IMG/VR virus record: IMGVR_UViG_2778261501_000004
Span: 1-21,272 of that record
Strand: one strand, 5' to 3'
Length of the DNA stretch: 21,272 nucleotides
Source: a virus
Lineage: Duplodnaviria > Heunggongvirae > Uroviricota > Caudoviricetes
Part shown: one piece after another, positions 1,012 to 19,914 of the stretch
How the letters are laid out: every line of letters starts with the position of its first letter
Numbering within the stretch: the stretch's first letter is position 1
The notes under the pieces: model-generated
Told to the model about the DNA's origin: nothing
The model's database searches: none
What the model saw: only the letters and a program-made list of their open reading frames with translations
Translations under genes and position numbers: made by a program

Positions 1012-1050
1012 CTTGGTGGCAAATGGTGAAAATGTAATTTTTATATAGAG

Positions 1051-1344
1051 TTAGCCAATCCTTTTCGCGGAGTGGTCGGATTCTGTTGACTCTGGCCCAA
1101 TGTGCGCGAGAGCCGGTGCGATTTGTCCCGCTTCCGGCGCTGTTTTATCTGTCATGAGCCATAGTGTGTATTTTTGGAACTGAGGTGCATTGGTGACCTG
1201 CAACACAACTTGGATGCCAGGGTCTTGATGGCCTCCTTCGTAATTCTTTAGCGTTCCTAACGCTATACCGCTGATTTCACTGAATTTTGCTTGAGTTAGC
1301 CCTTCCGATTGTCTTATTACTCTTAATTTCTGTGCGATATTCAT
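1051..1344 (-). CDS. P2 C-type immunity repressor (small HTH protein)
   Basis: The track ORF is 158 aa, but the plausible start is the ATG at 1342-1344 (MNIAQKLRVIRQSEGLTQAKFSEISGIALGTLKNYEGG...), giving about 97 aa with an XRE-like helix-turn-helix. Size and position (between int and cox, divergent from cox) match P2 gene C. No LexA/S24 peptidase domain. Confidence 0.8.
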   Translation of the reverse strand: MNIAQKLRVIRQSEGLTQAKFSEISGIALGTLKNYEGGHQDPGIQVVLQVTNAPQFQKYTLWLMTDKTAPEAGQIAPALAHIGPESTESDHSAKRIG

Positions 1345-1479
1345 TTGACATAGTCCTGACTTAATGACTATATTCCCCGAAAAGGTCATTAATCCAGAAC
1401 CTTTTCGGGCGTGAGTCCAGCGCCGCTTAAACGGTTCCAAGCGGTTTTTAAGGGGCTGGATCCTATGAGGGTAACATAG
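1345..1479. promoter_or_regulatory. early lysis/lysogeny switch region (face-to-face Pe/Pc promoters and operator expected)
   Basis: Divergent C and cox start codons flank this 135-bp interval. TTGACA at 1345-1350 with TATATT about 18 bp downstream is a candidate rightward Pe. TGAC repeats at 1346, 1357 and 1365 overlap it. Exact Pc not resolved. Confidence 0.5.
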
Positions 1480-1752
1480 ATGGAAGTTAATGATTATGTG
1501 ATTAAGTACCCGCTTGATGCGGTACATGCGGAAAAGTTTGCAGATTTATTGGGTAAACCAAAAACCGCAGTTACAGAAATGATAAAGGCTAACAAGCTAC
1601 CGGTTATCGAGCTTCGAGATCCAAATAAGCCGAAGGCCCGCGCCGGTGAGAAATGGGTTTTCATTCCAGAGTTTAATCGCGCTGTACGTGAGGCGTTTTA
1701 TAACCGACCGGTTGAACAGCGTGATGCATGGCTTTTGTGGATGGGGTTGTGA
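1480..1752 (+). CDS. cox: Cox-like excisionase / transcriptional repressor of Pc
   Basis: 90-aa ORF immediately rightward of the switch region, GAGGG RBS upstream; size, position and C-terminal WLxWxGL-type ending are as I recall for P2 Cox. Confidence 0.8.
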   Translation: MEVNDYVIKYPLDAVHAEKFADLLGKPKTAVTEMIKANKLPVIELRDPNKPKARAGEKWVFIPEFNRAVREAFYNRPVEQRDAWLLWMGL

Positions 1753-1754
1753 TT

Positions 1755-1925
1755 ATGAATGAGCCGCGTTGTATTGCTCAGTTACTGCGTAACGAAAGCC
1801 CCAGGGCGATTGACTTCACCATCACCCACGGGAAGGGACGCAAGGGAATCATTATCCGCACCAAAAAACAGAGTCCGTTAAAAAAGGCTCTGACCTTTCT
1901 GAAAAGCCGGAGGGTATGGAAATGA
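1755..1925 (+). CDS. hypothetical early protein (P2 orf78 position)
   Basis: ATG 3 nt after the cox stop; small basic ORF. The track offers an alternative start at 1728 that overlaps cox. No recognisable domain. Confidence 0.45.
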   Translation: MNEPRCIAQLLRNESPRAIDFTITHGKGRKGIIIRTKKQSPLKKALTFLKSRRVWK

Positions 1926-2422
1926 CAGTGATGACGCTCAATCTCGTTGAAAAACAGCCAGCAACTATGCGCCGGATAATTGGTAAGCATCTGGCCGTCC
2001 CTCGCTGGCAGGAGACATGTGATTATTATAATCAGATGATGGAACGCGAACGGCTAACGGTTTGCTTTCATGCGCAGTTAAAACAGCGTCACGCAACGAT
2101 GCGTTTTGAAGAAATGAATGACGTCGAACGTGAACGGCTGGTTTGTGCAATTGATGAATTGCGTGGGGCATTCTCAAAACGCCGTCAGGTTGGCGCAAGT
2201 GAGTATGCATATATTAGTTTTTTAACAGTCAGTCAGCGTCGCACTTTATTTATGCACGCACGACTGACAGAAAAAGAATTTAACCAGCCATACTGGCGAA
2301 TTAATGAAGAATCATGTTACTGGCGTGATGCTTTATTCCGTGCGTTACGTGAATTATTCAGTCTGTTTGAGTATGCACCGACAATTCTGACGTCGGTAAA
2401 ACCAGAGCAATATCTGCATTAA
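1916..2422 (+). CDS. replication protein B-like (helicase-loader position in P2)
   Basis: 168-aa ORF with GGAGG RBS, overlapping the stop of the previous ORF; the size is close to what I recall for P2 gpB (about 166 aa, unverified) and position matches. Assignment by synteny only. Confidence 0.6.
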   Translation: MEMTVMTLNLVEKQPATMRRIIGKHLAVPRWQETCDYYNQMMERERLTVCFHAQLKQRHATMRFEEMNDVERERLVCAIDELRGAFSKRRQVGASEYAYISFLTVSQRRTLFMHARLTEKEFNQPYWRINEESCYWRDALFRALRELFSLFEYAPTILTSVKPEQYLH

Positions 2423-2486
2423 ATAATTAACCAGAGTTTTTAACGCACTTAATCGTGCGGGGGCTTCTTTTTGCCTGGAGAAAGTC

Positions 2487-2711
2487 ATGCATACAGTTTC
2501 TGAAAACAAGTGCGGTAAATACGCATTACTGCTGCAACAGGCCAGAGCCGAAGCACAGGCCGACGCAGCGACACGCTTTTCTTCTCATCTTGACGCCATG
2601 ATTCGCCATATCACAAAGGCGGAGTTATCCCGCGTGGAGATAGTCGAGCTGCTCAGTCAGGAGTCGGAAAAATTTCACAATATCGGATTGTCTCGCGGGG
2701 AGGTGCTTTGA
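2487..2711 (+). CDS. hypothetical early protein (P2 orf80 position)
   Basis: 74-aa ORF with GGAG RBS; synteny only. Confidence 0.5.
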
Positions 2712-3010
2712 TGTCCTGTTCTAATTCAGTTGTATTACTGAATAACGCCTTAAAAATCGCCGTTATGAAAAATGGCGATTTATCTCTTATTCAACTTTGC
2801 CTTGATAAAGAAAAACGCGACATAACTGAATCTGTTATCGCGATTTATCAGAATGAATTAAACCTCCTGTCTGATGTGGTCAATTTACTTGTTAAACGCG
2901 CTGTATTCCACAAGCAAATTTCCTCAGTGGATGAACTGACAAAATTAACGACAGAACTTGCCAGTTATTGCGCTGATGTATCCAGGAAACTTAACGATAA
3001 AAGGAGCTGA
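2711..3010 (+). CDS. hypothetical early protein (P2 orf81 position)
   Basis: About 99-aa ORF; its ATG overlaps the stop of the previous ORF (TGATG). A TTG at 2708 is an alternative start. Synteny only. Confidence 0.5.
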   Translation: MSCSNSVVLLNNALKIAVMKNGDLSLIQLCLDKEKRDITESVIAIYQNELNLLSDVVNLLVKRAVFHKQISSVDELTKLTTELASYCADVSRKLNDKRS

Positions 3011-3012
3011 TA

Positions 3013-3237
3013 ATGCCGGACAACGTAGATTTTATTCAGGAACAACAGACTGAATTACTGGAGCGTCAGATTAACGCGGCAAGGGTAAAGCATTGCGGTG
3101 TTTCTGCGCTGGTTTGCGAAGAGTGTGACGCGCCAATACCTGCTGCCCGTCGTGCGGCTTATCCGTCAGCCACGCGTTGTGTTTCCTGCCAGTCAGTCTT
3201 TGAAGCAAAAAACAAACATTACCGGAGAACGGCATGA
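3013..3237 (+). CDS. TraR/DksA-family C4 zinc-finger protein (P2 orf82 position)
   Basis: 74-aa ORF with AAGGAG RBS; contains CEEC-x(n)-CVSC four-cysteine motif (CEECDAPIPAARRAAYPSATRCVSCQ) typical of phage TraR/DksA-like proteins. Confidence 0.7.
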   Translation: MPDNVDFIQEQQTELLERQINAARVKHCGVSALVCEECDAPIPAARRAAYPSATRCVSCQSVFEAKNKHYRRTA

Positions 3238-3509
3238 GTATTCGTATTGAAATTGGCGAACGTTATGTCGTTACCAGTGACAGCTTTCAGTTTATTCTCC
3301 ACGAGAAAAAGAGAGCGGAAAGCGGTAAAAACGCCGGTCAGGAATGGCTGTCGGTGGTTGGTTATTATCCGAAATTAAGCCAGCTCGTTTCCGGCCTGAT
3401 GCATCACGATATTCTGACCGGAAGCGCAAAGTCTTTTGCTGATTTAAACGCGCAGGTTGAGCAACTCAGCAGGCGTTGTTCAGAGGCTTTTGGCTCATAT
3501 GGCCGTTAA
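3234..3509 (+). CDS. hypothetical early protein (P2 orf83 position)
   Basis: 91-aa ORF; ATGA overlap with the previous stop; synteny only. Confidence 0.5.
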   Translation: MSIRIEIGERYVVTSDSFQFILHEKKRAESGKNAGQEWLSVVGYYPKLSQLVSGLMHHDILTGSAKSFADLNAQVEQLSRRCSEAFGSYGR

Positions 3510-5784
3510 AGCCTCCGGGCGTTTTGTCCCTCCGTCAGCATTTGCCGCAGGCACCGGTAAGGCGTTTACCGGTGCTTATGCATGGAACGCGCCACGCGAG
3601 GCTGTCGGGCGCGAAAGACCCCTTACACGTGACGAGATGCGTCAGGTGCAAGGTGTTTTATCCACGATTAACCGCCTGCCTTACTTTTTGCGCTCGCTGT
3701 TTACTTCACGCTATGACTACATCCGGCGCAATAAAAGCCCGGTGCACGGGTTTTATTTCCTCACATCCACTTTTCAGCGTCGTTTATGGCCGCGCATTGA
3801 GCGTGTGAATCAGCGCCATGAAATGAACACCGACGCGTCGTTGCTGTTTCTGGCAGAGCGCGACCAGTATGCGCGCCTGCCGGGGATGAATGACAAGGAG
3901 CTGAAAAAGTTTGCTGCCCGTATCTCATCGCAGCTTTTCATGATGTATGAGGAACTCTGCGATGCCTGGGTTGATGCACATGGCGAAAAAGAATCGCTGT
4001 TTACGGATGAGGCGCAGGCTCACCTCTATGGTCATGTTGCTGGCGCTGCGCGTGCTTTCAATATTTCCCCGCTTTACTGGAAAAAATACCGTAAAGGGCA
4101 GATGACCACGAGGCAGGCATATTCTGCCATTGCCCGCCTGTTTAACGATGAGTGGTGGACTCATCAGCTTAAAGGCCAGCGTATGCGCTGGCATGAGGCG
4201 TTACTGATTGCTGTCGGGGAGGTCAATAAAGACCGTTCTCCTTATGCCAGTAAACATGCCATTCGTGATGTGCGTGCGCGCCGCCAGGCAAATCTGGAAT
4301 TTCTTAAATCGTGTGACCTTGAAAACAAGGAAACCGGCGAGCGCATCGACCTTATCAGTAAGGTGATGGGCAGTATTTCTAATCCTGAAATTCGCCGGAT
4401 GGAGCTGATGAACACCATTGCCGGTATTGAGCGTTACGCCGCCGCAGAGGGTGATGTGGGGATGTTTATCACGCTGACCGCGCCGTCAAAGTATCACCCG
4501 ACACGTCAGGTCAGAAAAGGCGAAAGTAAAACCGTTCAGCTTAATCACGGCTGGAACGATGAGGCATTTAATCCAAAGGATGCGCAGCGTTATCTCTGCC
4601 GCATCTGGAGCCTGATGCGCACGGCATTCAAGGATAATGATTTACAGGTCTACGGTTTGCGTGTCGTCGAGCCACACCACGACGGAACGCCGCACTGGCA
4701 TATGATGCTTTTTTGTAATCCACGCCAGCGTAACCAGATTATCGAAATCATGCGTCGCTACGCGCTCAAAGAGGATGGAGACGAAAGAGGAGCTGCGCGA
4801 AACCGTTTTCAGGCAAAACACCTTAACCGGGGCGGTGCTGCGGGATATATCGCGAAATACATTTCAAAAAACATCGACGGCTATGCACTGGATGGTCAGC
4901 TCGATAACGACACCGGCAGGCCGCTGAAAGACACTGCAGCGGCTGTTACCGCATGGGCGTCAACGTGGCGCATCCCGCAATTTAAAACGGTTGGCCTGCC
5001 GACAATGGGGGCTTACCGTGAACTACGCAAATTGCCGCGCGGCGTCAGCATTGCTGATGAGTTTGACGAGCGCGTCGAGGCTGCACGCGCCGCCGCAGAC
5101 AGTGGTGATTTTGCGTTGTATATCAGCGCGCAGGGTGGGGCAAATGTCCCGCGCGATTGTCAGACTGTCAGGGTTGCCCGTAGCCCGTCGGATGACGTTA
5201 ACGAGTACGAGGAAGAAGTCGAGAGAGTGGTCGGCATTTACGCGCCGCATCTCGGCGCGCGTCATATTCATATCACCAGAACGACGGACTGGCGCATTGT
5301 TCCGAAAGTGCCGGTCGTTGAGCCTTTGACTTTAAAAAGCGGCATCGCCGCGCCTCGGAGTCCTGTCAATAACTGTGGAAAGCTTACCGGCGGTGATACT
5401 TCGTTACCGGCTCCCACACCTTCTGAGCACGTCGCAGCAGTGCTTAATCTGGTTGATGACGGTGTTATCGAATGGAATGACCCGGAGGTCGTGAGGGCGC
5501 TCAGGAGCGCATTAAAATACGGCCTGAGAACCTCAAACCGTCAGCAAAGAAACGGAAGCCCGTTAAAACCGCATGAAATTGCACCATCGGCCAGACTGAC
5601 CCGGTCGGAAAGAATGCAAATTACCCGTATCCGCGTTGACCTTGCTCATAACGGTATCAGGCCGCAGCGATGGGAGCTTGAGGCGCTGGCGCGTGGCGCG
5701 ACCGTAAATTATGACGGGAAAAAATTCACTTATCCGGTCGCTGATGAGTGGCCGGGATTCTCAACAGTAATGGAGTGGAAATGA
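3499..5784 (+). CDS. rolling-circle replication initiator endonuclease gpA
   Basis: Large ORF; HUH-type motif (TPHWHMMLF) and tyrosine pair (YIAKYISKNIDGY) typical of P2 A-family Rep proteins. Start taken at ATG 3499 (MAVKASGRF...), overlapping the previous gene; the track's longer ORF starts at 3457. Confidence 0.9.
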   Translation: MAVKASGRFVPPSAFAAGTGKAFTGAYAWNAPREAVGRERPLTRDEMRQVQGVLSTINRLPYFLRSLFTSRYDYIRRNKSPVHGFYFLTSTFQRRLWPRIERVNQRHEMNTDASLLFLAERDQYARLPGMNDKELKKFAARISSQLFMMYEELCDAWVDAHGEKESLFTDEAQAHLYGHVAGAARAFNISPLYWKKYRKGQMTTRQAYSAIARLFNDEWWTHQLKGQRMRWHEALLIAVGEVNKDRSPYASKHAIRDVRARRQANLEFLKSCDLENKETGERIDLISKVMGSISNPEIRRMELMNTIAGIERYAAAEGDVGMFITLTAPSKYHPTRQVRKGESKTVQLNHGWNDEAFNPKDAQRYLCRIWSLMRTAFKDNDLQVYGLRVVEPHHDGTPHWHMMLFCNPRQRNQIIEIMRRYALKEDGDERGAARNRFQAKHLNRGGAAGYIAKYISKNIDGYALDGQLDNDTGRPLKDTAAAVTAWASTWRIPQFKTVGLPTMGAYRELRKLPRGVSIADEFDERVEAARAAADSGDFALYISAQGGANVPRDCQTVRVARSPSDDVNEYEEEVERVVGIYAPHLGARHIHITRTTDWRIVPKVPVVEPLTLKSGIAAPRSPVNNCGKLTGGDTSLPAPTPSEHVAAVLNLVDDGVIEWNDPEVVRALRSALKYGLRTSNRQQRNGSPLKPHEIAPSARLTRSERMQITRIRVDLAHNGIRPQRWELEALARGATVNYDGKKFTYPVADEWPGFSTVMEWK

Positions 5785-6227
5785 TGGCAAAAATTCACGA
5801 GGTAAAGCTGCACGCCAAATATTTTGACCTTGTGCTGGAAGGAAAGAAACGCGCAGAGTTTCGGAAAAATGACCGTAATTATGAGCGCGGGGACACGTTG
5901 ATTTTGCATGAATGGGTACAGGGTGTGTATACGGGGCGAAAGGTTGAAGCCCGGATAACAGATGTTACTGACCTGTCAGACTGGCTGGAAGATTATGTCT
6001 TGCTAAGTATTGAGCGGCTTAATACAGGCGCATATGAGATTGTGAACTGGAAAGAACTTAGTGAGCGTGGTCTGGTATTCAGAATTAATCATGAAATTAT
6101 GCATCAGCTCGGCCTTGCTGTTATGTATGAGCCGGAGACGGGGCTGTCTGGCGGGGCAGTGGTTACTGCGGATGGGATATGGAACTATTCAGATGAACAG
6201 GTGGAGCGTACAAAGCAAAACGGGTGA
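5781..6227 (+). CDS. DUF3850/ASCH-like domain protein (cargo)
   Basis: Start overlaps the A stop (ATGATGG). N-terminal 80 aa (KIHEVKLHAKYFDLVLEGKKRAEFRKNDRNYERGDTLILHEW...) resemble the ASCH/PUA-like DUF3850 fold as I remember it; C-terminal half unassigned. Confidence 0.55.
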   Translation: MMAKIHEVKLHAKYFDLVLEGKKRAEFRKNDRNYERGDTLILHEWVQGVYTGRKVEARITDVTDLSDWLEDYVLLSIERLNTGAYEIVNWKELSERGLVFRINHEIMHQLGLAVMYEPETGLSGGAVVTADGIWNYSDEQVERTKQNG

Positions 6228-6442
6228 CTTGGATAATGCACAGAATACCAGGCGAGATACCGCACCATAAAACTAAAAATATCAAGCTGATGGCTATTGT
6301 TCAGCGTTTACAGCGGATTATGGTCAACGAAAATCTGACGCCCGATGAGCTGGTCGGGTGTGCCGAAATAGTCCGGGATAATTACGGGCGGTTTAACCAT
6401 ATCGGTCAATCAAGAGTTACGCCACCACCACGCAGACGATAG
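6224..6442 (+). CDS. hypothetical small protein
   Basis: 72-aa ORF overlapping the previous stop; no recognisable motif; could be non-coding. Confidence 0.3.
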   Translation: MTWIMHRIPGEIPHHKTKNIKLMAIVQRLQRIMVNENLTPDELVGCAEIVRDNYGRFNHIGQSRVTPPPRRR

Positions 6443-6639
6443 AGAACGCCGCCAGTCGTGAAACTTGTTTTCAGGGCTGGCGGGGTTGAACAACGAGCGA
6501 AGCGAGGCGTTAGCTAGGCTTTCTATATTGTTTACAATTAAACCTATCCAGAATTAATTGGAATTCAATTTGATCTTTTTCTCGCTACATATGGCCACAA
6601 GTACCAAAACGTGAGAACATCAAAGCTAGGCGAAATCTA

Positions 6640-6695
6640 GCTTTTCCATAGGAGTTGTTTCGTTATAATACGCGGTCGGTTTTTAGGAGGGGTCA
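6640..6695 (+). promoter_or_regulatory. candidate promoter and RBS of the methyltransferase gene
   Basis: Perfect TATAAT at 6664-6669 and AGGAGG at 6685-6690, 5 nt before the ATG at 6696; no convincing -35. Confidence 0.35.
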
Positions 6696-7634
6696 ATGCC
6701 AACTGTAGTGTCGCTTTTTTCCGGGTGTGGTGGTTCTGATGCAGGAGTCTTGAAGGCTGGGTTTGATGTTCTAATGGCGAATGACATTTTACCTTACGCT
6801 CGTGATGTGTATTTGGCTAACCATCCAGAAACTGATTATGTTTTGGGTGATGTCTCCACTATTGAATCGTTTCCATCTGCTGAACTGCTGGTTGGTTGCT
6901 ATCCCTGTCAAGGTTTTAGCCAAGGTGGAGTTCGAAAAGCTGATAGAAAAATTAATACGCTATACTTAGAGTTTGCAAGAGCTTTAAGAATAGTTAAGCC
7001 AAAAGCGTTCATTGTTGAAAACGTTTCTGGCATGTTGCGAAGTAACTTTGAACATTTGTTGAAAGATCAGTTCAAGGTTTTCGAAGAGGCTGGTTACAGA
7101 GTTAAATCTAAAATTCTAAATGCTTCTCATTTTGGTGTTGCTCAGGATCGTAAGCGCATTTTTATTGTTGGCATACATGAGAGATTTGGAGTTGATTTTT
7201 CGTTTCCAGTCGCGACTCATGGCGAAGGATTGAAAAGAGTGACTACTATCCGTGATGCGATAGGTTCGTTACCGGAATGGCCTGTTGGAGAGTTTTATGA
7301 TGCCGATTTCCATTGGTATTATTTATCAAGAAATCGCCGTCAGGACTGGGATCAAATCTCAAAAACCATAGTTGCTAATCCAAGGCATATGCCTTTACAT
7401 CCAATTAGTCCAACTCTTATAAAGTTAGGTCCAGATAAATGGCAATTTACATCAAATGAACGTGCACGGCGTTTTAGTTTTCGTGAGGCTGCTTATCTTC
7501 AAGGATTTAGTAATTTAGTTTTTCCTGAAACAGAGCGAGCATCCATGAATATGAAATATACAGTTGTCGGAAACGCCGTACCGCCCCCTTTATTCGAAGC
7601 GGTAGCGCGTTCATTACCTGATATTTGGGATTAA
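6696..7634 (+). CDS. DNA (cytosine-5)-methyltransferase
   Basis: 312 aa with canonical C5-MTase motifs in order: I FSGCGG, IV PCQGFS (catalytic Cys), VI ENV (FIVENVSG), VIII QDRKR, X GNAVPPP. AT-rich relative to phage backbone. Confidence 0.9.
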   Translation: MPTVVSLFSGCGGSDAGVLKAGFDVLMANDILPYARDVYLANHPETDYVLGDVSTIESFPSAELLVGCYPCQGFSQGGVRKADRKINTLYLEFARALRIVKPKAFIVENVSGMLRSNFEHLLKDQFKVFEEAGYRVKSKILNASHFGVAQDRKRIFIVGIHERFGVDFSFPVATHGEGLKRVTTIRDAIGSLPEWPVGEFYDADFHWYYLSRNRRQDWDQISKTIVANPRHMPLHPISPTLIKLGPDKWQFTSNERARRFSFREAAYLQGFSNLVFPETERASMNMKYTVVGNAVPPPLFEAVARSLPDIWD

Positions 7635-8560
7635 CTCAACACATAATCCATAGCCACTAAGTCATCAACAAACGTTAGATTGTCTTGGTGGTTTATCTGT
7701 GGATATTTTTTAGTCAGATTTACTAGTCTAAGTCTATCAACAAATATTGCAGCACCAAAATCACTCCTGTGAGCCCAGTCGCGGTTATGCCATCTTAAAT
7801 CTTGTGGAAGAAAATAATATGTTGACCATGGATGTAAGACAGGAAGCAAATTCCACAATTTAGCCGGTGTGGCCTCAAGTTGTTTTGCTACCCATTCAGT
7901 TTTTGAACATCCACATTGAGCAAGAGCAAGAGGTATAGACTCACGATTATCTCCCATATCATGCCAAGCGAGTATATCAATTCCTCCATCTCCCCTGTCA
8001 TTTGGTTTGAAATCTTCAATTGAAAAATTAGCTTTACATCTGAAATCTTGTGCTATTTTAGTTAACTTATCAAAGAGTAAGCCAGTGTAGTGACCTGAAT
8101 TACCTGCGCTAGCCCAACAGTGTTTAACTGTTGCTCCTTCAGGCATGAGGGCTTGAAATATGGGATAGCTTATTTTCTCAAATGCACTTGTAAATATGTC
8201 ACGGTGACTATTTTCTATATATTTTATATTTGCACAGGCTAAGAGTGCTATGTATAGTTTTTCATTTTGATTGTAATCAGCAATATTATGCTTTCTTAAG
8301 AATAATGTGTCTCTGTCATCAGAAAAATAAAAGGGGTAATCATCACCGAAAAGGCTAATTCTTGTGTCAATGAATGTCGCTGCAAAATTCCATTTATCGT
8401 CAGAATACCCGCGTGACTTTGGATTTGCTTGAGACCTAAAGAGGCTTGCTAGATCTCCTCTACTAAAGCATTTGTCTGTATTTACTGTAGCCCATAACTC
8501 TAAATAGTCGCCCCATAAATATGGCTCGTTATCGGGTAATGAGTCCATGTGAAAAATCAT
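7631..8560 (-). CDS. putative nuclease, Mrr-like PD-(D/E)xK signature (cargo, second gene of minus-strand pair)
   Basis: 309-aa ORF; start ATG overlaps the stop of the upstream gene (TAATG); contains NDRGDGGIDILAW followed by a Q-x-x-x-x-K region, reminiscent of the GDGGID core of Mrr-type restriction nuclease domains. 3' end overlaps the MTase stop by about 4 nt. Confidence 0.55.
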   Translation of the reverse strand: MIFHMDSLPDNEPYLWGDYLELWATVNTDKCFSRGDLASLFRSQANPKSRGYSDDKWNFAATFIDTRISLFGDDYPFYFSDDRDTLFLRKHNIADYNQNEKLYIALLACANIKYIENSHRDIFTSAFEKISYPIFQALMPEGATVKHCWASAGNSGHYTGLLFDKLTKIAQDFRCKANFSIEDFKPNDRGDGGIDILAWHDMGDNRESIPLALAQCGCSKTEWVAKQLEATPAKLWNLLPVLHPWSTYYFLPQDLRWHNRDWAHRSDFGAAIFVDRLRLVNLTKKYPQINHQDNLTFVDDLVAMDYVLS

Positions 8561-9639
8561 TATTCATCTTCCTCACGGATGCTTTCAATTTGTTTTTTAA
8601 TTTTACGCGCTATAGATAATATTTCACTCGAACGATATTCGTGATTTTCTGTGAAAGAGTGCGTGTTGAGAAGCATATCCCAAACAACTCTTAGTCGAGA
8701 TTCTGCTTGGTCTAGAGCTTGATCCAAAGCCTCTTCATGACCATTTGTATATAAATAGGCTTCTTCAATGTTTTTAGACTTTATGAGGTTATCTATTGCT
8801 GCTTCATTGGCAACTATTGTTGAAAGATTTTTGATCTTGCGACTTTCACCAATGATAGTATCACCCTGTTGATCTCTAACAAAGAACCAAGCAAAAAGCT
8901 TCTCAAGGTTTTCCTCTTTCAGGTTTTTAGCAGATAAATCTTTTCTATCATCTAAGCCTAACCAGTCTGTAATGTTAGTATATCCAAGAGCTGTTGTTAT
9001 GTAGGAAAAATCGACATCATTCTCACTCATATGCAAATTATAGAAGTTTTTATCAGCAGCGGTTTCATATAATTTGAGTGAAGTTAATAAAAGGCCGACG
9101 TAATAAGATTTACTGCCAATTTCTTTAGCTAATGACTTTAAAAGAGATTCTTTGTCTGCACCTTTGTAGAAAGTTTCACTAAGCTCCTTAAGATACTTAG
9201 CTTTAGAAAGTGCATCCCATTCTTTCACACCAGTAATGTGTCTATATCCGATATAACGTAACACATCTTCACGTCTTGTGTAGACGAGACAAGGTAATTT
9301 AGTCGGTTTATAAGTAGCATCGTCCTGAATTAGTTGAATGCTTTTTTCTTTTCTTTTAGGTGGTAAAAGTTCGCTATTGAGCAACTTTACGGCAGCAAGG
9401 CGACGGTTACCCTCAACTACAACATATTTTTTCCCGGAACTAACCACTAAAAGAGGTTCTCCGGGAAAGTAATCTTGTTCCCCTATGGACAGCATCAAAT
9501 CTTGTACACTTTCGTCATCAAGCATTTCTTCAATGACGGCATTTTCAGATCCAGCCCTATCGTTTAACCGATAGAAACGTGGGTTTTCAGGATCAAACTC
9601 TAGATCTTCCGTGTTTATGTATTTGATTTCGTTGCTCAT
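8560..9639 (-). CDS. ParB/Srx N-terminal domain protein (cargo, first gene of minus-strand pair)
   Basis: 359-aa ORF; residues 1-90 show the ParB N-terminal pattern (DPENPRF ... SIGEQDYFPGEPLLVV ... YVVVEGNRRLAAVKLL, i.e. the GxRR arginine box); remainder predicted helical, unassigned. Confidence 0.65.
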   Translation of the reverse strand: MSNEIKYINTEDLEFDPENPRFYRLNDRAGSENAVIEEMLDDESVQDLMLSIGEQDYFPGEPLLVVSSGKKYVVVEGNRRLAAVKLLNSELLPPKRKEKSIQLIQDDATYKPTKLPCLVYTRREDVLRYIGYRHITGVKEWDALSKAKYLKELSETFYKGADKESLLKSLAKEIGSKSYYVGLLLTSLKLYETAADKNFYNLHMSENDVDFSYITTALGYTNITDWLGLDDRKDLSAKNLKEENLEKLFAWFFVRDQQGDTIIGESRKIKNLSTIVANEAAIDNLIKSKNIEEAYLYTNGHEEALDQALDQAESRLRVVWDMLLNTHSFTENHEYRSSEILSIARKIKKQIESIREEDE

Positions 9640-9830
9640 AATTGTATTCTGCGCAGATATAAGGATGACTTGCTACAGCATAACCTTATGTTTAGCATCT
9701 GTCATTATGATGGCTGCCTTATGCATGATTTTGCATCCATTTTTTATTTTATTTTTTTGGGGGCGCATTAGGCCCGATATGGTTTTTGGAGACGATGCGT
9801 TTGCATCAAAACAGCCCCATGAAGCGGGCG

Positions 9831-9849
9831 GGCGAGGCGGGGAAAGCAC
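9831..9849. other. cos cohesive-end site (P2-type 19-nt sequence)
   Basis: GGCGAGGCGGGGAAAGCAC matches what I recall as the P2 19-nt cohesive end, and sits where cos is expected, between the A-side cargo and the Q/P packaging genes. Confidence 0.6.
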
Positions 9850-9990
9850 TGCGCGCTGGCAGTAGTGCTGATTTTATTTTTTCAGCGTCTGAGCGCGTCG
9901 TGATGGCGTTTAGATTGTGTGCCGGGGCGTTGGTTTGTCTGCGGGCTATTTTGCGCGGAGGTGAGCGTGTGAGGGCGTGATGGCGGGGTG

Positions 9991-10013
9991 TAAAAAAGCC
10001 GCCCGCAGGCGGC
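9991..10013 (-). terminator. rho-independent terminator downstream of Q (leftward late operon)
   Basis: GCCGCC-CGCA-GGCGGC hairpin followed on the minus strand by a T-run (plus-strand AAAAAA at 9992-9997), 6 nt past the Q stop. Confidence 0.55.
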
Positions 10014-10018
10014 GATGT

Positions 10019-11053
10019 TCAGCCGTTGTCAGTGTCCAGTGAGTAGTTTTTAAAGCGGATGACCTCCTGACCGAGCCAGCCGTTTATCTCGCGGATCCTG
10101 TCCTGTAACGGGATAAGCTCATTGCGGACAAAGACCTTTGCCACTTTCTCAATATCACCCAGCGACCCGACGTTCTCCGGCTTGCCGCCCATCAACTGAA
10201 AGGGGATGCGGTGCGCGTCCAGCAGGTCAGCGGCGCTGGCTTTTTTGATATTAAAAAAATCGTCCTTCGTTGCCACTTCACTGAGCGGGATAATTTTTAT
10301 GCCGTCGGCTTTCCCCTGTGGGGCATAGAGAAACAGATTTTTAAAGTTATTGCGGCCTTTCGACTTAACCATGTTTTCGCGAAGCATTTCGATATCGTTG
10401 CGATCCTGCACGGCATCGGTGACGTACATGATGTATCCGGCATGTGCGCCATTTTCGTAATACTTGCGGCGGAACAGCGTGGCCGACTCATTCAGCCAGG
10501 CAGAATTAAGGGCGCTCAGATATTCCGGCAGGCCGTACAACTCCTGATTGATATCCGGCTCCAGCAGGTGAAACACGGAGCCGGGCGTGAAGGCTGTCGG
10601 CTCGTTGAAGGACGGCACCCACCAGTAAACATCCTCCTCCACGCCACGGCGGGTATATTTTGCCGGTGAGGTTTCCAGTCTGATGACCTTACCGGTGGTG
10701 CTGTAACGCTTTTCCAGAAACGCATTACCGAACACCAGAAAATCCAGCACAAAGCGGCTGAAATCCTGCTGGGAAAGCCACGGATGCGGGATAAATGTCG
10801 AGGCCAGAATATTACGTTTGACGTAAATCGGTGAGCTGTGATGCACGGCAGCACGCAGGCTTTTTGCCAGACCGGTAAAGCTGACCGGTGGCTCATACCA
10901 TCTGCCGTTACTGATGCACTCGACGTAATCCAGAATGTCACGGCGGTCGAGTACCGGCACCGGCTCACCAAAGGTGAATGCCTCCATTTTCGGGGCGCTG
11001 GCGGTCATTGTTTTCACCGCTGGCTGCGGTGTTTTCCCTTTTTTCTTGCTCAT
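10019..11053 (-). CDS. portal protein gpQ
   Basis: 344 aa, leftward, start overlaps terminase stop; size and position as P2 Q. Confidence 0.85.
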   Translation of the reverse strand: MSKKKGKTPQPAVKTMTASAPKMEAFTFGEPVPVLDRRDILDYVECISNGRWYEPPVSFTGLAKSLRAAVHHSSPIYVKRNILASTFIPHPWLSQQDFSRFVLDFLVFGNAFLEKRYSTTGKVIRLETSPAKYTRRGVEEDVYWWVPSFNEPTAFTPGSVFHLLEPDINQELYGLPEYLSALNSAWLNESATLFRRKYYENGAHAGYIMYVTDAVQDRNDIEMLRENMVKSKGRNNFKNLFLYAPQGKADGIKIIPLSEVATKDDFFNIKKASAADLLDAHRIPFQLMGGKPENVGSLGDIEKVAKVFVRNELIPLQDRIREINGWLGQEVIRFKNYSLDTDNG

Positions 11054-12825
11054 CAGTAAAACTCCAGAATGGTGGATGTCAGCGGGGTGCTGATACCGGC
11101 GGTGAGTGGCTCATTTAACAGGGCGTGCATGGTCGCCCAGGCGAGGTCGGCGTGGCTGGCTTCCTCGCTGCGGCTGGCCTCATAGGTGGCGCTGCGTCCG
11201 CTGCTGGTCATGGTCTTGCGGATAGCCATAAACGAGCTGGTGATGTCGGTGGCGCTGACGTCATATTCCAGACAGCCACGGCGGATGACGTCTTTTGCCT
11301 TGAGCACCATTGCGGTTTTCATTTCTGGTGTGTAGCGGATATCGCGCGCGGCGGGATAGAACGAGCGCACGAGCTGGAACACGCCGACACCGAGGCCGGT
11401 GGCATCAATACCGATGTATTCGACGTTATATTTTTCGGTGAGTTTGCGGATGGATTCCGCCTGGGTGGCAAAGTCCATGCCTTTCCACTGGTGACGCTCA
11501 AGTATTCTGAATTTGCCACCGGCCACCACCGGCGGTGCCAGCACCACACATCCGGCACTGTCGCCACGGTGTGACGGGTCGTAACCAATCCATACCGGAC
11601 GGGAGCCGAACGGATTCGCGGCAAACGGCGCATAGTCTTCCCATTCTTCCAGCGTGTCGACCATGCAGCGTTGCAGCTCCTCGAACGGGAACACCGACGC
11701 CTTGTCGTCAACAAATTCACACATGAACAGGTTTTTAAAATCGTCGGCGCTGTTTTCGCGTTTGAGCTGCTCAATGTCGAACAGCGTGCAGCCACCTTTC
11801 AGGGCGTCCTCAATGGTGACAATCTGTCGCCACTGGCCGTCCGCACAGAGAAGCCCACCGGCAAGGGCGTTATGACTGACGTCGATTTCCACGCGTTCGG
11901 CGGCGCTGGCGCGTCCCCGGTTATACAGTTCACCCGACCAGAACGGGTAGGCGTCGTGCGCCAGCGTGGACGGGGTGGAGAAATAGGTCGAACGCAGGTG
12001 ACTCTGTGAGGCCATACCTGATGCCACCTTACGCAGTACCTGAAAATTCGGGATCCAGAAAATCTCGTCGACGTACAGGTCGCCGTTATGGCTCTGCGCG
12101 GTGTTGGAGTTGGTGCCGAGAAAAATCAGTTTTGCGCCGTTATTGCCCAGGACAATCGGGTCACCGGTCAGGTCAACGTCAACCAGACGGGCAAAGGCGA
12201 TGATGTATTCGCGGAACACATACGCCTGCGTTTTACTGGCCGACAGAAAAATCTGGTTATGACCGGTTTTCAGGGCGCGCAGCAGCGCCTCGCGGGAAAA
12301 ATAAAATGTCGCGCCAATCTGGCGGGATTTCAGGATATCGCGGATGCGGTGCTCAAGCCCGGCGCGATACCAGTGCAACTGATAGTCGAAAGACTGCTCA
12401 AAGAAAATCTGCTCCAGCTTTTCGATGGCCTCGTCACTGAAAAAATTCTTTTTCGGTTTGCGCCGCCCGCCTTTGTTGCGGTTAGCGACGTTCGGATTAA
12501 GGTCTGCCTCGTTGCCGGTCTGGCTGTAGCGATTTACCCGTGCCAGTCGTTCAATCTGGCGTCCCAGCAGGTCAATTTCCTTGAAGTCACCGCCGGTTTT
12601 CTGCGGTTTGATGATGAGCTGGGTCAGCCGCGCTTCCAGGCTCATTTCGACACGGCTGATGGGGGCAACGCTGTCCCAGCCGTCGCGCTGTTTCCAGCTC
12701 TGCACCGTCGGGCGTTTCATCTGCAACATGGCGGCAATCTGCGGCACGGAAAACCCCTGCCAGTACAGCAGCGCCGCCTGACGACGCGGGTCGTGTAAAA
12801 GAGTGGTGTCTGTGGTGATGGTCAT
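11053..12825 (-). CDS. terminase large (ATPase) subunit gpP
   Basis: Start taken at ATG 12823-12825 (MTITTDTTLLHDPRRQAALLYWQGFSVPQIA...), giving 590 aa; the track ORF extends 17 codons further upstream. Divergent from O, as in P2. Confidence 0.85.
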   Translation of the reverse strand: MTITTDTTLLHDPRRQAALLYWQGFSVPQIAAMLQMKRPTVQSWKQRDGWDSVAPISRVEMSLEARLTQLIIKPQKTGGDFKEIDLLGRQIERLARVNRYSQTGNEADLNPNVANRNKGGRRKPKKNFFSDEAIEKLEQIFFEQSFDYQLHWYRAGLEHRIRDILKSRQIGATFYFSREALLRALKTGHNQIFLSASKTQAYVFREYIIAFARLVDVDLTGDPIVLGNNGAKLIFLGTNSNTAQSHNGDLYVDEIFWIPNFQVLRKVASGMASQSHLRSTYFSTPSTLAHDAYPFWSGELYNRGRASAAERVEIDVSHNALAGGLLCADGQWRQIVTIEDALKGGCTLFDIEQLKRENSADDFKNLFMCEFVDDKASVFPFEELQRCMVDTLEEWEDYAPFAANPFGSRPVWIGYDPSHRGDSAGCVVLAPPVVAGGKFRILERHQWKGMDFATQAESIRKLTEKYNVEYIGIDATGLGVGVFQLVRSFYPAARDIRYTPEMKTAMVLKAKDVIRRGCLEYDVSATDITSSFMAIRKTMTSSGRSATYEASRSEEASHADLAWATMHALLNEPLTAGISTPLTSTILEFY

Positions 12826-12998
12826 GAATACCTCGCCGTGATGAATACACGGCAAGGCTACTGAGTCGCGTCCCACGATTCGCTAAGGTGCTGTTGTGTC
12901 AGTGATAAGCCATCCGGGACTGATGGCGGAGGATGCGCATCGTCGGGAAACTGATGCCGACATGTGACTCCTCTAATCACTATTCAGGACTCCTGACA
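12826..12998. promoter_or_regulatory. divergent late promoter region (P_P leftward, P_O rightward), Ogr-dependent in P2
   Basis: 173-bp intergenic region between divergent P and O starts; promoter elements not resolved by eye. Confidence 0.45.
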
Positions 12999-13853
12999 AT
13001 GGCAAAAAAAGTCTCAAAATTCTTTCGTATCGGCGTTGAGGGTGACACCTGTGACGGGCGTGTCATCAGTGCGCAGGATATTCAGGAAATGGCCGAAACC
13101 TTTGACCCGCGTGTCTATGGTTGCCGTATTAACCTGGAACATCTGCGCGGCATCCTGCCTGACGGTATTTTTAAGCGTTATGGCGATGTGGCCGAACTGA
13201 AGGCCGAAAAGATTGACGATGATTCGGCGCTGAAAGGCAAATGGGCGCTGTTTGCGAAAATCACCCCGACCGATGACCTTATCGCGATGAACAAGGCCGC
13301 GCAGAAGGTTTATACCTCAATGGAAATTCAGCCGAACTTTGCCAACACCGGCAAATGTTATCTGGTGGGACTGGCCGTCACCGATGACCCGGCAAGCCTC
13401 GGTACGGAATACCTGGAATTCTGCCGCACGGCAAAACACAACCCCCTGAACCGCTTCAAATTAAGCCCTGAAAACCTGATTTCAGTGGCAACGCCCGTTG
13501 AGCTGGAATTTGAAGACCTGCCTGAAACCGTGTTCACCGCCCTGACCGAAAAGGTGAAATCCATTTTTGGCCGCAAACAGGCCAGCGATGACGCCCGTCT
13601 GAATGACGTGCATGAAGCGGTGACCGCTGTCGCTGAGCATGTGCAGGAAAAGCTGAGTGCCACTGAGCAGCGCCTCGCTGAGATGGAAACCGCCTTTTCC
13701 GCACTTAAGCAGGAGGTGACTGACAGGGCGGATGAAACCAGCCAGGCATTCACCCGCCTGAAAAACAGTCTCGACCACACCGAAAGTCTGACCCAGCAGC
13801 GCCGCAGCAAGGCCACCGGCGGTGGCGGTGACGCCCTGATGACGAACTGCTGA
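12999..13853 (+). CDS. capsid scaffolding protein gpO
   Basis: Start at ATG 12999 (MAKKVSKFFRIGVEGDTCDGR...), 284 aa; first gene of rightward late operon. Confidence 0.85.
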   Translation: MAKKVSKFFRIGVEGDTCDGRVISAQDIQEMAETFDPRVYGCRINLEHLRGILPDGIFKRYGDVAELKAEKIDDDSALKGKWALFAKITPTDDLIAMNKAAQKVYTSMEIQPNFANTGKCYLVGLAVTDDPASLGTEYLEFCRTAKHNPLNRFKLSPENLISVATPVELEFEDLPETVFTALTEKVKSIFGRKQASDDARLNDVHEAVTAVAEHVQEKLSATEQRLAEMETAFSALKQEVTDRADETSQAFTRLKNSLDHTESLTQQRRSKATGGGGDALMTNC

Positions 13854-13911
13854 CCGGCGTCAGTCAGTCCGGGAAAACCTTCACGATTAACCCTTAATTT
13901 CAGGAAAAACT

Positions 13912-14985
13912 ATGCGCCAGGAAACCCGCTTTAAATTTAATGCCTACCTGTCCCGTGTTGCCGAACTGAACGGCATCGCCGCCGGTGATGTGTCGAAAAA
14001 ATTCACCGTTGAACCGTCGGTCACCCAGACCCTGATGAACACCATGCAGGAGTCCTCTGATTTTCTGACCCGCATCAACATTGTGCCGGTCAACGAAATG
14101 AAAGGGGAAAAAATTGGTATCGGTGTCACCGGCTCCATCGCCAGCACCACCGACACCGCCGGTGGCACCGAGCGTCAGCCGAAGGACTTCTCGAAGCTGG
14201 CGTCTAACAAGTACGAATGCGACCAGATTAACTTCGATTTTTATATCCGCTACAAAACGCTTGACCTGTGGGCGCGTTATCAGGATTTCCAGCTCCGTAT
14301 CCGTAACGCCATTATCAAACGCCAGTCCCTTGATTTCATTATGGCCGGTTTTAACGGCGTGAAGCGTGCAGAAACCTCTGACCGCAGCAGCCATCCGATG
14401 CTGCAGGATGTGGCGGTCGGCTGGCTGCAGAAATACCGCAATGAAGCCCCGGCGCGTGTGATGAGTAAGGTCACTGACGAGGAAGGCCGCACCACCTCTG
14501 AGGTTATCCGCGTGGGTAAGGGCGGTGATTATGCCAGCCTTGATGCACTGGTGATGGATGCGACCAACAACCTGATTGAGCCGTGGTATCAGGAAGACCC
14601 TGACCTTGTGGTGATTGTGGGGCGTCAGTTACTGGCGGACAAGTATTTCCCCATCGTTAACAAGGAGCAGGACAACAGCGAAATGCTGGCCGCTGACGTC
14701 ATCATCAGCCAGAAACGCATCGGTAACCTGCCAGCGGTACGCGTCCCGTACTTCCCGGCGGATGCGATGCTCATCACGAAGCTGGAAAACCTGTCCATCT
14801 ACTACATGGATGACAGCCATCGCCGCGTGATTGAGGAAAACCCGAAACTCGACCGCGTGGAGAACTACGAGTCAATGAACATTGATTACGTGGTGGAAGA
14901 CTACGCCGCCGGTTGTCTGGTGGAAAAAATTAAGGTCGGTGATTTCTCCACACCGGCTAAAGCGACCGCAGAGCCGGGAGCGTAA
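13912..14985 (+). CDS. major capsid protein gpN
   Basis: 357-aa ORF after O; size and position as P2 N. Confidence 0.85.
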   Translation: MRQETRFKFNAYLSRVAELNGIAAGDVSKKFTVEPSVTQTLMNTMQESSDFLTRINIVPVNEMKGEKIGIGVTGSIASTTDTAGGTERQPKDFSKLASNKYECDQINFDFYIRYKTLDLWARYQDFQLRIRNAIIKRQSLDFIMAGFNGVKRAETSDRSSHPMLQDVAVGWLQKYRNEAPARVMSKVTDEEGRTTSEVIRVGKGGDYASLDALVMDATNNLIEPWYQEDPDLVVIVGRQLLADKYFPIVNKEQDNSEMLAADVIISQKRIGNLPAVRVPYFPADAMLITKLENLSIYYMDDSHRRVIEENPKLDRVENYESMNIDYVVEDYAAGCLVEKIKVGDFSTPAKATAEPGA

Positions 14986-14988
14986 CCG

Positions 14989-15726
14989 ATGACGAGTCCC
15001 GCACAGCGCCACATGATGCGGGTCTCGGCAGCGATGACCGCGCAGCGGGAAGCCGCCCCGCTGCGACATGCAACTGTCTATGAGCAGATGCTGGTTAAGC
15101 TCGCCGCAGACCAGCGCACACTGAAAGCGATTTATTCAAAAGAGCTGAAGGCCGCGAAAAAACGCGAACTGCTGCCGTTCTGGTTGCCGTGGGTGAACGG
15201 CGTGCTGGAGCAGGGCAAAGGTGCACAGGATGACATTCTGATGACGGTCATGCTGTGGCGTCTGGATACCGGCGATATTGCCGGTGCGCTGGAGATTGCC
15301 CGTTATGCCCTGAAGTACGGTCTGACCATGCCGGGTAAACACCGCCGTACCCCGCCGTACATGTTCACCGAGGAGGTAGCGCTTGCGGCCATGCGCGCTC
15401 ATGCTGCCGGTGAGCCTGTGGACCCCCGCCTGCTGACGGACACCCTTGAACTGACCGCCACGGCTGATATGCCTGATGAAGTGCGCGCAAAGCTGCACAA
15501 AATCACCGGTCTGTTTCTGCGTGACGCTGGTGATGCCGCAGGGGCGCTGGCGCATCTGCAACGTGCGACACAGCTCGACTGTCAGGCAGGCGTAAAAAAA
15601 GAGATTGAACGACTGGAGCGGGAGCTGAAACCGAAGCCGGAGCCAAAAGCGGTCACCCGCGCCCCGCGTAAGATCCGGAGTGCGACACCGGCAAAACGTG
15701 GACGCCCGAAAAAGAAAGCCAGTTAA
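14989..15726 (+). CDS. terminase small/endonuclease subunit gpM
   Basis: 245-aa ORF 3 nt after the N stop; basic C-terminal tail; P2 M position. Confidence 0.8.
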   Translation: MTSPAQRHMMRVSAAMTAQREAAPLRHATVYEQMLVKLAADQRTLKAIYSKELKAAKKRELLPFWLPWVNGVLEQGKGAQDDILMTVMLWRLDTGDIAGALEIARYALKYGLTMPGKHRRTPPYMFTEEVALAAMRAHAAGEPVDPRLLTDTLELTATADMPDEVRAKLHKITGLFLRDAGDAAGALAHLQRATQLDCQAGVKKEIERLERELKPKPEPKAVTRAPRKIRSATPAKRGRPKKKAS

Positions 15727-15825
15727 CAACCGAATGCGCCCCGCGCCAGGGCGGCACGCCGGTCAGTGAGGGTGAATCACCTGACACAGCACCGGCGTCC
15801 ACCGCCCGACTTTTCAGAGGTAGTC

Positions 15826-16335
15826 ATGATGACGCTGATTATTCCGCGAAAGGAGGCTCCCGTGTCCGGTGAGGGTACGGTGGTCATCCCGCAACCGGCA
15901 GGCGACGAGCCGGTGATTAAAAACACGTTCTTTTTTCCCGATATCGACCCGAAGCGCGTCCGGGAACGTATGCGCCTTGAGCAGACCGTCGCCCCCGCCC
16001 GTCTGCGTGAGGCCATCAAGTCAGGCATGGCGGAAACAAATGCGGAGCTGTACGAGTACCGCGAACAGAAAATTGCCGCCGGTTTTACGCGTCTGGCGGA
16101 CGTTCCGGCAGACGATATCGACGGTGAAAGCATCAAAGTTTTTTACTACGAGCGCGCCGTGTGTGCGATGGCGACCGCGTCGCTTTATGAGCGTTATCGC
16201 GGCGTGGATGCCAGTGCGAAAGGCGACAAGAAGGCCGACAGCATTGACAGCACCATTGATGAGCTGTGGCGGGATATGCGCTGGGCAGTGGCGCGCATCC
16301 AGGACAAGCCGCGTTGCATCGTGAGTCAAATCTGA
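15826..16335 (+). CDS. head completion/stabilisation protein gpL
   Basis: Start taken at ATG 15826 with AGAGG RBS (MMTLIIPRKEAP...), 169 aa; track ORF begins earlier at 15766. Confidence 0.8.
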   Translation: MMTLIIPRKEAPVSGEGTVVIPQPAGDEPVIKNTFFFPDIDPKRVRERMRLEQTVAPARLREAIKSGMAETNAELYEYREQKIAAGFTRLADVPADDIDGESIKVFYYERAVCAMATASLYERYRGVDASAKGDKKADSIDSTIDELWRDMRWAVARIQDKPRCIVSQI

Positions 16336-16538
16336 TGAAGACCTTTGCGCTACAGGGCGACACGCTCGACGCCATTTGTGTCCGGTATTACGGGCGCACT
16401 GAGGGCGTGGTTGAGACCGTGCTCGCCGCAAATCCGGGACTGGCTGAACTGGGTGCGGTGCTGCCACACGGCACCGCCGTCGAACTGCCCGACGTTCAGA
16501 CCGCGCCCGTGGCTGAAACTGTCAATCTGTGGGAGTAA
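16335..16538 (+). CDS. tail protein gpX
   Basis: 67-aa ORF, ATGA overlap with the L stop (MKTFALQGDTLDAICVRYYG...). Confidence 0.75.
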   Translation: MKTFALQGDTLDAICVRYYGRTEGVVETVLAANPGLAELGAVLPHGTAVELPDVQTAPVAETVNLWE

Positions 16539-16541
16539 CGC

Positions 16542-17320: not shown

Positions 17321-17334
17321 ACGGAGTAAACACC

Positions 17335-19832: not shown

Positions 19833-19851
19833 TGTGTTTTATTTTATCTGT

Positions 19852-19880: not shown

Positions 19881-19914
19881 GGCAACATCAACAAAACCGG
19901 AAGAGGTGCTCGCG

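Follow-up and report, generated by a model that had tools for sequence, protein, structure and literature searches.

A ParB-fold protein with a putative nuclease and a C5 methyltransferase: a candidate restriction-modification-like cassette from a P2-like prophage defence hotspot

What does a protein resembling the partition factor ParB do in the cargo region of a P2-like prophage, next to a putative nuclease and a DNA methyltransferase? The question is raised by a 21,272-nucleotide stretch of viral DNA (IMG/VR record IMGVR_UViG_2778261501_000004, positions 1 to 21,272; hereafter, the window), an E. coli-type P2-like prophage whose genes stand in prophage order and which carries, between the replication endonuclease gene gpA (3457-5784) and the portal gene gpQ (10019-11053), a low-GC insert of three genes. 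One of them encodes a ParB/Srx-fold protein of 359 residues, and we consider it moderately probable that this open reading frame (ORF) is the ParB-fold subunit of a three-gene, restriction-modification (R-M)-like anti-phage cassette residing in the gpA-gpQ hotspot. Four points are either directly seen or strongly supported by the data below: the ParB-fold layout of the protein, its coupling to a gene for a nuclease-fold protein, the convergent gene for a HaeIII-like methyltransferase, and the travelling of this trio across phyla.

The gene extends from ATG to stop at positions 8560..9639 and is the first of the putative restriction operon. The preliminary description of this locus had called an ORF with ParB N-terminal motifs at these positions, and both the coordinates and the motifs were confirmed, the latter being FDPENPRFY (residues 15-23), SIGEQDYFPGEPLLVV (residues 51-66) and VVVEGNRRLAAVKLL (residues 73-87). 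The gene lies on the minus strand; a plus-strand reading of 8560-9639 was rejected, its translation being full of stops. The ParB N-terminal, nucleoside triphosphate (NTP)-binding-fold domain occupies residues 1-150 (9190..9639, minus strand), as delimited by conserved columns and hhalign, and includes Box I (ENPR, residues 18-21), Box II (GNRR, residues 77-80; nucleotides 9400-9411) and, at the position of Box III, a GYRHITG...W stretch (residues 131-141). Among 56 homologues of 51-80% identity, N19-P20-R21, G77-N78-R79-R80 and GYRHITG...W are invariant.

The N-terminal domain is seen weakly by sequence models, and the evidence from fold comparison is stronger. The hidden Markov model searches thus bore out the predicted ParB assignment in part: Pfam ParB_N (PF02195; E 0.0045, 17.4 bits) and TIGR00180 (E 3.9e-6, 26.7 bits) both matched, but below their curated cut-offs of 26.3 and 58.45 bits, respectively, and GmrSD_N (DUF262) did not match the window protein at all, while 5 of 34 relatives matched it weakly (best E 0.0045). 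ParB_N was matched by 19 of the 34 family members at E <=0.1 (best 5.5e-5), and a precomputed PF02195 match is present on many homologues. When the 56-homologue profile was compared with the Protein Data Bank (PDB), it retrieved ParB chains, including H. pylori ParB (4umk, E 0.0046) and Spo0J (6sdk). Alignment by hhalign with B. subtilis Spo0J gave a probability of 81.6% (E 1.1e-5) and paired Box I (NPxQPR) with NPR, and GERR with GNRR. The AlphaFold2 (AF2) model of the protein, which has a mean predicted local distance difference test (pLDDT) score of 87.6, found its structural matches in Spo0J (score 7.8, 160 residues) and pNOB8 ParB-N (7.5, 180 residues), as well as in the DNA-binding domains of KorB (6.8), ParB and VirB; structure prediction thus agreed with the ParB assignment. 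The GYRHITG...W stretch is the sole segment of the model with pLDDT below 50 (the loop of residues 136-140 being low). With the phosphate-binding arginines of Box I and of the arginine box intact, membership of the ParB superfamily is strongly supported.

Matches to the N-terminal domain and to DNA-binding domains together indicate a full ParB layout of N-terminal domain, helix-turn-helix (HTH) and helical C-terminus. The ParB/KorB-type HTH DNA-binding domain covers residues ~143-235 (8935..9213, minus strand), so that the earlier view of the last 270 residues as devoid of any nameable motif does not hold. The remaining C-terminal helical region (residues ~236-358; 8563..8934, minus strand), defined from the secondary structure of the AF2 model, returned no family match and ends in the model in a long helical hairpin (helices 301-325 and 331-358), which is a possible dimerisation element. 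A HEPN domain in the C-terminus had been considered on account of the label 'ParB/HEPN' carried by the defence system PD-lambda-5 and of the string RYIGYRH. It was rejected because this string aligns to the Box III region, and hence falls inside the ParB N-terminal domain, and because the conserved C-terminal residues E265 and R267 have no His after them; the C-terminal part of the alignment shows no Rx4-6H HEPN motif.

Is the protein then a partition ParB? Some databases label its homologues 'ParB/RepB/Spo0J family partition protein', and putative plasmid partition systems occupy this same hotspot in about a quarter of P2-like phages (PMC9122126), so that it might be a remnant or accessory of phage partition or plasmid maintenance, unrelated to the nuclease and the methyltransferase. 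The surroundings of the gene contradict this. There is no ORF for ParA or any Walker-A protein among those of the window, the ParA-binding motif LG[KR]GL is absent from the protein, and a repeat scan of 6200-10020 returned short two-copy matches of the chance type and no parS-like repeats. Relatives occur in only 5 of 72,556 plasmids, and in the two inspected a ~310-residue ORF follows the gene. In chromosomal, non-replicon settings, the gene is in fixed linkage with that of the partner. Together with the subthreshold TIGR00180 score, these context data effectively refute a partition role, to which we assign only a vanishing probability. The protein is not a partition protein, as the preliminary description had already proposed.

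The gene downstream encodes a partner of 309 residues (7631..8560, minus strand) composed of an N-terminal winged helix and a C-terminal PD-(D/E)xK restriction-endonuclease-like domain. The partner itself matched no Pfam, NCBIfam or PADLOC model, and no Pfam domain was found on any of its homologues. Its AF2 model (pLDDT 93.1; predicted template modelling score, pTM, 0.91) in contrast matched N.BspD6I (7.4), NgoMIV (7.2), MspJI (6.8), SdaI (6.4) and AspBHI (6.3), with Bse634I, Cfr10I, AgeI and SgrAI lower among the matches and small winged-helix proteins matching the N-terminal part; the top Foldseek match was MspJI (E 7e-5, probability 1.00). A PDB profile search with a close alignment returned nothing, and a broader profile built from 62 representatives (24-43% identity) aligned 'GDGGlD...QCaC' with 'GDGGVD...GQAKC' of MspJI at a non-significant E of 0.14. 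Mrr_cat was matched by 3 of 37 family members (E 0.085). Within the 62 representatives, D195 is invariant, G190, D191, G193, Q215, C216 and K226 are at least 90% conserved, and E128 is nearly invariant; the putative active-site strands are GDGGID (residues 190-195) and QCGC (residues 215-218; together 7907..7993, minus strand). The catalytic Lys of the QxK motif of the MspJI family is, however, G or A in the partner. The fold assignment is thus good and the active site atypical, and the earlier designation of the two genes as a nuclease pair has to be amended, only the downstream protein having a nuclease fold. The partner family comprises 1,527 representatives at 50% identity (E <=1e-3), 451 of them at E <=1e-30. 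No fusion to a ParB-like protein was found in the best 150 partner representatives, all of which are stand-alone proteins of ~300-380 residues or shorter fragments.

The genes for the two proteins form a minus-strand operon in which the stop codon of the first and the start codon of the second overlap by one base (TAATG), strongly supporting their translational coupling. The third gene of the insert, encoding a C5 cytosine DNA methyltransferase of 312 residues (6696..7634, plus strand), converges on the partner gene with a 4-base overlap of the 3' ends. The methyltransferase is a complete enzyme with all its catalytic motifs: it matched PF00145 over its full length (2.9e-60) and TIGR00675 (7e-55), and it aligned with M.HaeIII (1dct) from end to end, variable region included (residues 4-307, E 3e-46), which makes GGCC or a related site a reasonable guess for its target. 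Its best PADLOC matches were DruM2|DruM and MTase_II models, with no PD-Lambda-5_B model among the matches listed.

A locus scan with the partner protein as query, limited to one genome per species, yielded 51 loci. The whole trio recurs in about 45 of them, in phages as well as chromosomal islands and across several phyla (hosts being Gamma-, Beta- and Alphaproteobacteria, Bacteroidota and one planctomycete), in agreement with the suggestion made in the preliminary description that the ParB-like gene belongs to a nuclease and methyltransferase module. A ParB-like gene stands directly upstream of the partner gene on the same strand in 47 loci; of the four in which it is not intact, three are truncated by the contig end (one, L046, keeps a fragment) and one, L041, is decayed. 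A C5 methyltransferase gene is likewise present in 47 of the 51 loci, mostly immediately downstream and convergent. In phage Wphi, whose allele E. coli W carries naturally, the trio consists of orf98, orf96 and mth (65%, 49% and 84% identical to the window's proteins); it is also found in vB_EcoM-12474 phages and, at a different genome position, in Pseudomonas Citexvirus. In Yersinia phage HQ103 (L005), no gene is annotated for ~1 kb beyond that of the partner, at roughly 2330-3350; an ORF scan of this gap revealed an unannotated C5 methyltransferase gene whose product is 76% identical to the window's, and HQ103 thus carries the full trio. Chromosomal islands of Methylomonas, Dechloromonas and Acidovorax harbour the trio beside transposase or Vsr genes. 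In some non-enterobacterial loci, a Vsr gene adjoins that of the C5 methyltransferase, as a 58-residue fragment in L008 (10669-10845) and at full length in L012 (10073-10489); Vsr is a usual neighbour of R-M systems that produce 5-methylcytosine (5mC).

Decayed loci have lost the restriction side of the trio and kept the methyltransferase: in L041, the methyltransferase gene is intact, the ParB-like gene gone and the partner gene halved, while the partner gene is frameshifted in L056 and interrupted by an insertion sequence in L060. Such loss of R with M retained is how R-M systems are expected to decay. Some loci combine the pair of ParB-like and partner genes with other neighbours. In L040, no methyltransferase gene was detected within 6 kb of the pair, which is followed by one for a Uma2 nuclease; in L031, a gene for a 1049-residue N6-methyltransferase protein stands between those of the partner and the C5 methyltransferase. 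In L062 (Salinibius halmophilus, 4674-11679), the pair lies beside dndD, dndC and dndB with no C5 methyltransferase gene, its other flank encoding a HerA/DUF87-type ATPase of 1265 residues and an HNH protein. The pair can therefore combine with another DNA modification and, in L062, may work with phosphorothioate modification.

Pairwise identities across 46 loci are strongly correlated between the ParB-like protein and the partner (r = 0.93), and those of either protein correlate with those of the methyltransferase at r ~0.35 each. Mean identity is 66% for the methyltransferase versus 45% for the ParB-like protein and 40% for the partner; in L006, for example, the pair is ~30% identical to that of the window whereas the methyltransferase is 85% identical. 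Judged from these sequence comparisons, the ParB-like protein and its partner appear to co-evolve as one unit, which is reshuffled relative to a methyltransferase that stays conserved.

How might the three proteins work together? In the R-M-like reading that we favour, the methyltransferase would mark resident DNA, and the ParB-like protein, probably as a dimer, would bind DNA via its HTH. Binding of some NTP at its N-terminal domain could then serve as a switch, either through a clamp that closes or slides, in the manner of ParB and KorB, or as an allosteric gate, as in the DUF262 domain of GmrSD, BrxU and SspE. This switch would recruit, position or license the partner nuclease to cut DNA devoid of the mark. 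Nucleotide binding and hydrolysis and the switch role are proposed here from the conserved motifs and by analogy with ParB, KorB, GmrSD/SspE and PD-lambda-5; we likewise infer, rather than observe, complex formation, clamp behaviour and site specificity.

The cassette is a variation on known kinds, namely R-M systems and ParB-fold-coupled defence nucleases. The nearest of the latter is PD-lambda-5, annotated 'ParB/HEPN, methyltransferase', which protected against nearly all phages tested, whose cloning needed an mrr-deleted host, and which has been called a compacted prophage 'RM+Abi' (abortive infection) system (PMC9519451, Vassallo et al. 2022). In PADLOC, residues 1-152 of the window protein match PD-Lambda-5_A (1e-24) and residues 42-348 match the first half of the candidate PDC-M38A (1.8e-25); hhalign against PD-lambda-5 protein A of Marinobacter phage AS1 gave 98.3% probability over residues 5-149 only. 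Phage AS1 is a bona fide carrier of PD-lambda-5, encoding a protein A of 486 residues and a D12-class N6-adenine methyltransferase, AS1_26, that matches PD-Lambda-5_B (4e-103) and PF02086. The two systems thus share the same ParB-N subfamily over the N-terminal ~150 residues, with EGNRR and a downstream RH; both are linked to a methyltransferase and prophage-borne, and PD-lambda-5 is experimentally a broad anti-phage system. In contrast, protein A of PD-lambda-5 (~430-500 residues) ends in a fused HEPN domain where the 359-residue window protein has an HTH and a helical tail, the effector in the window is a separate PD-(D/E)xK-fold protein, and the D12-class enzyme of the AS1 example has its counterpart in a C5 methyltransferase. 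Since homology ends at residue ~149 and both the effector and the methyltransferase class differ, the window cassette is to be viewed as a sibling of PD-lambda-5 and not as a member. The fusion of the ParB-N module to an effector in PD-lambda-5 argues that the module works within the effector machinery.

Coupling of a ParB-fold NTPase to a nuclease is also known from GmrSD, BrxU and SspE (PMC12065111), in which a ParB-superfamily NTP-binding domain is joined to a DNA nuclease in defence and followed by a DNA-binding helical domain. Unlike the window cassette, these are single polypeptides that combine DUF262, with a DGQQR motif, and a DUF1524 HNH domain, and they target modified DNA or sense phosphorothioate; the window protein has GNRR, as in true ParB, and is accompanied by a separate PD-(D/E)xK protein and a linked protective methyltransferase, no HNH domain being found in the window cassette. 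With the ParB, KorB and Noc clamps, which provide its best structural matches, the window protein shares the order of N-terminal domain with arginine box, HTH and C-terminal helical element. It departs from them in having no ParA, ParA-binding peptide or parS array, in carrying YRHITG in place of the Box III motif ENLQR, in its linkage to a nuclease and a methyltransferase, and in scoring below curated ParB thresholds. Type II R-M systems of the P2/P4 hotspot (e.g. EcoT38I of a P2-like prophage) and controller-bearing R-M systems (Esp1396I) resemble the cassette in their convergent C5 methyltransferase and PD-(D/E)xK-fold protein, in their cos-proximal prophage hotspot and in a decay that leaves an orphan methyltransferase. 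They lack the ParB-fold gene that is an obligatory third member of the window cassette, whether it replaces a small C-protein or comes in addition to one, and the nuclease motif of the window is atypical. Any NTP dependence would fall outside classical Type II, whose 'no NTP' criterion is rendered doubtful here by the obligatory presence of a ParB-fold partner.

Several observations weigh against the R-M-like reading with an NTP switch. ENLQR, the hydrolysis motif of ParB, is the one that YRHITG replaces; the G or A at the position of the canonical catalytic lysine leaves the catalytic competence of the partner putative; and co-divergence can also arise from the shared inheritance of two adjacent genes. 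Furthermore, a survey of ParB-fold proteins detected NTP binding in 11 of 28 purified proteins and found that sequence and AlphaFold3 predict no specificity (PMC12704722); the same survey reported that mobile elements are enriched for orphan ParB-like proteins, which can bind CTP, ATP or GTP in no predictable way. Finally, KorB, a transcriptional repressor, is among the best structural matches of the ParB-like protein, and the gene order (regulator-like, R, convergent M) also fits an R-M system with a controller protein.

These last two points lead to the main rival, in which the ParB-like protein would be a KorB-like transcriptional controller, analogous to a C-protein and possibly NTP-clamping, that binds an operator to time or repress expression of the nuclease gene but is no part of the cutting enzyme. 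Esp1396I and other C-protein systems likewise have a regulator-like gene, an overlapping R gene and a convergent M gene; the KorB match is compatible with such a role, and there is no small HTH gene that could act as a separate controller. A further argument comes from the intergenic region between the operon and the terminator of the portal gene (9640..10018, minus strand), which contains a sigma-70-like site (9705-9677) and an ATGCA-N5-ATGCA element (9722-9736, minus strand), i.e. two TGCA tetramers one helical turn apart, ~85-96 nucleotides upstream of the ParB-like start in the window and 90-130 nucleotides upstream across its carriers. Of 54 loci, 5 have the element ahead of the operon, where shuffles predict 0.12, and these carriers are all the enterobacterial P2-type alleles (the window, L002, L006, L013 and L014), whose flanks diverge; HQ103 has TGCG-N6-CGCA at its position. 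It is, however, the same in L006, whose ParB-like protein has only 31% identity, and no motif common to 47 upstream regions was found. An element that stays constant while the ParB-like protein diverges is unlikely to be the operator of that protein. Some other factor, perhaps of the phage or the host, probably recognises it, and its role may be that of a promoter or operator. The controller reading is also at odds with the fusion of the homologous N-terminal domain to a HEPN effector in PD-lambda-5 protein A, with the size of the protein (~4x that of a C-protein, being a ParB-type protein of 359 residues versus an Xre-type HTH of ~80-100) and with its co-divergence with the nuclease. On balance, we regard a controller role as unlikely.

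The modification-dependent relatives of the partner bring in another alternative, namely that the pair is an abortive-infection system or a sensor of modification state, the ParB-like protein sensing invading DNA (unmethylated, modified or phage-specific) and unleashing the partner as a non-specific toxic nuclease. In line with such a role are the modification-dependent nature of the partner's closest structural relatives, MspJI and AspBHI, the description of PD-lambda-5 as a compacted RM+Abi system (PMC9519451) and the occurrence of the pair with dnd genes (L062) or with no detectable methyltransferase (L040). The partner, however, has a winged-helix DNA-binding domain of its own where the MspJI family has an SRA-like N-terminal 5mC-binding domain, and no such 5mC reader is found in it. 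The near-obligate linkage to one conserved methyltransferase, and the loss of the pair before that of the methyltransferase, are moreover what a modification-protected cutter predicts, and we accordingly hold the toxic sensor to be rather improbable.

If, on the other hand, the R-M-like reading with its switch holds, the consequences would reach beyond this prophage. It is possible, although we put this forward tentatively, that the cassette represents a distinct and widespread class of restriction in which an NTP-gated clamp or slider of ParB-CTPase fold searches out unmodified DNA and then either brings in a separate PD-(D/E)xK nuclease with a non-canonical active site or licenses it to act. 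Such a class would solve the problem of long-range communication in restriction in a third way, next to the ATP-driven translocation of Type I and the ATP-triggered sliding of Type III enzymes. The ParB-N module would then lend itself to reuse with a variety of effectors (HEPN in PD-lambda-5) and of modifications (5mC, N6-methyladenine, phosphorothioate). The switch model, if true, would mean a new NTP-dependent mechanism of restriction, would make PD-lambda-5 a sibling with the same sensor and a different effector, and would add the partner to genome annotation as an unannotated family of restriction endonucleases. The ParB-CTPase fold has recently been seen to be a general nucleotide switch well beyond chromosome segregation, and most 'orphan' ParB-like proteins on mobile elements have no assigned function; the present family is a concrete case. 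The cassette is compact (3 kb), widespread and experimentally tractable, catalogued but uncharacterised: in a search of the literature, we found no functional paper on the trio and nothing for 'PDC-M38'.

The setting of the cassette is that of known defence cargo. The interval between gpA and gpQ is the P2 defence hotspot, in which old and tin sit in P2 itself (PMC9122126). The hotspot cargo in Table S5A of Rousset et al. includes 'DNA_methylase + hypothetical + ParBc' as well as the Wphi-type arrangement; the authors mention it in this supplementary table only and report no test of it (PMC9122126). GC content falls to 36-40% from ~6500 to ~9500, compared with 53-60% in the prophage backbone. 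Ahead of the cassette, in Wphi and 12474 as in the window, stand genes for a DUF3850/ASCH and DUF7415 protein of the P2 orf91 type (5748-6227) and for a 72-residue ORF of PHROG 11386, to which PHROG gives no function (6224-6442). In phages, DUF3850 has been reported among the domains that occur fused to ParB-CTPase folds (PMC12704722); in the window, it belongs to a separate backbone gene and is not fused to the ParB-like protein.

The remainder of the window begins with the integrase gene (1-1011, minus strand), followed in its early part by that of an HTH repressor. Beyond the cassette, the portal gene gpQ is on the minus strand and is followed by terminase, head, lysis and early tail genes. 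At 19260-20133, an ORF with the gpV OB domain only (residues 19-86) runs directly into ogr (Ogr_Delta, 19801-20133), after which the chromosomal gene fieF starts at 20352; the P2 tail genes W through D are thus missing. The prophage looks defective, the defence cassette having apparently been kept on a cryptic element.

Palindromes are strongly avoided in the backbone (1-6227 plus 10019-20300, compared with a maximal-order Markov expectation). GATC was counted 10 times against 64 expected, GGACC plus GGTCC once against 21, and TGGCCA, AGGCCT and CGGCCG 0 times each against ~5 each, while GGCC occurred 57 times against 92. With many palindromes avoided, word counts single out no target site for the methyltransferase, and the deficit is one of general restriction-site avoidance that does not point to one enzyme. 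Among 5,426 complete E. coli genomes, the cassette allele of the window itself is present in one, and the Wphi-type allele in 104 (~2%).

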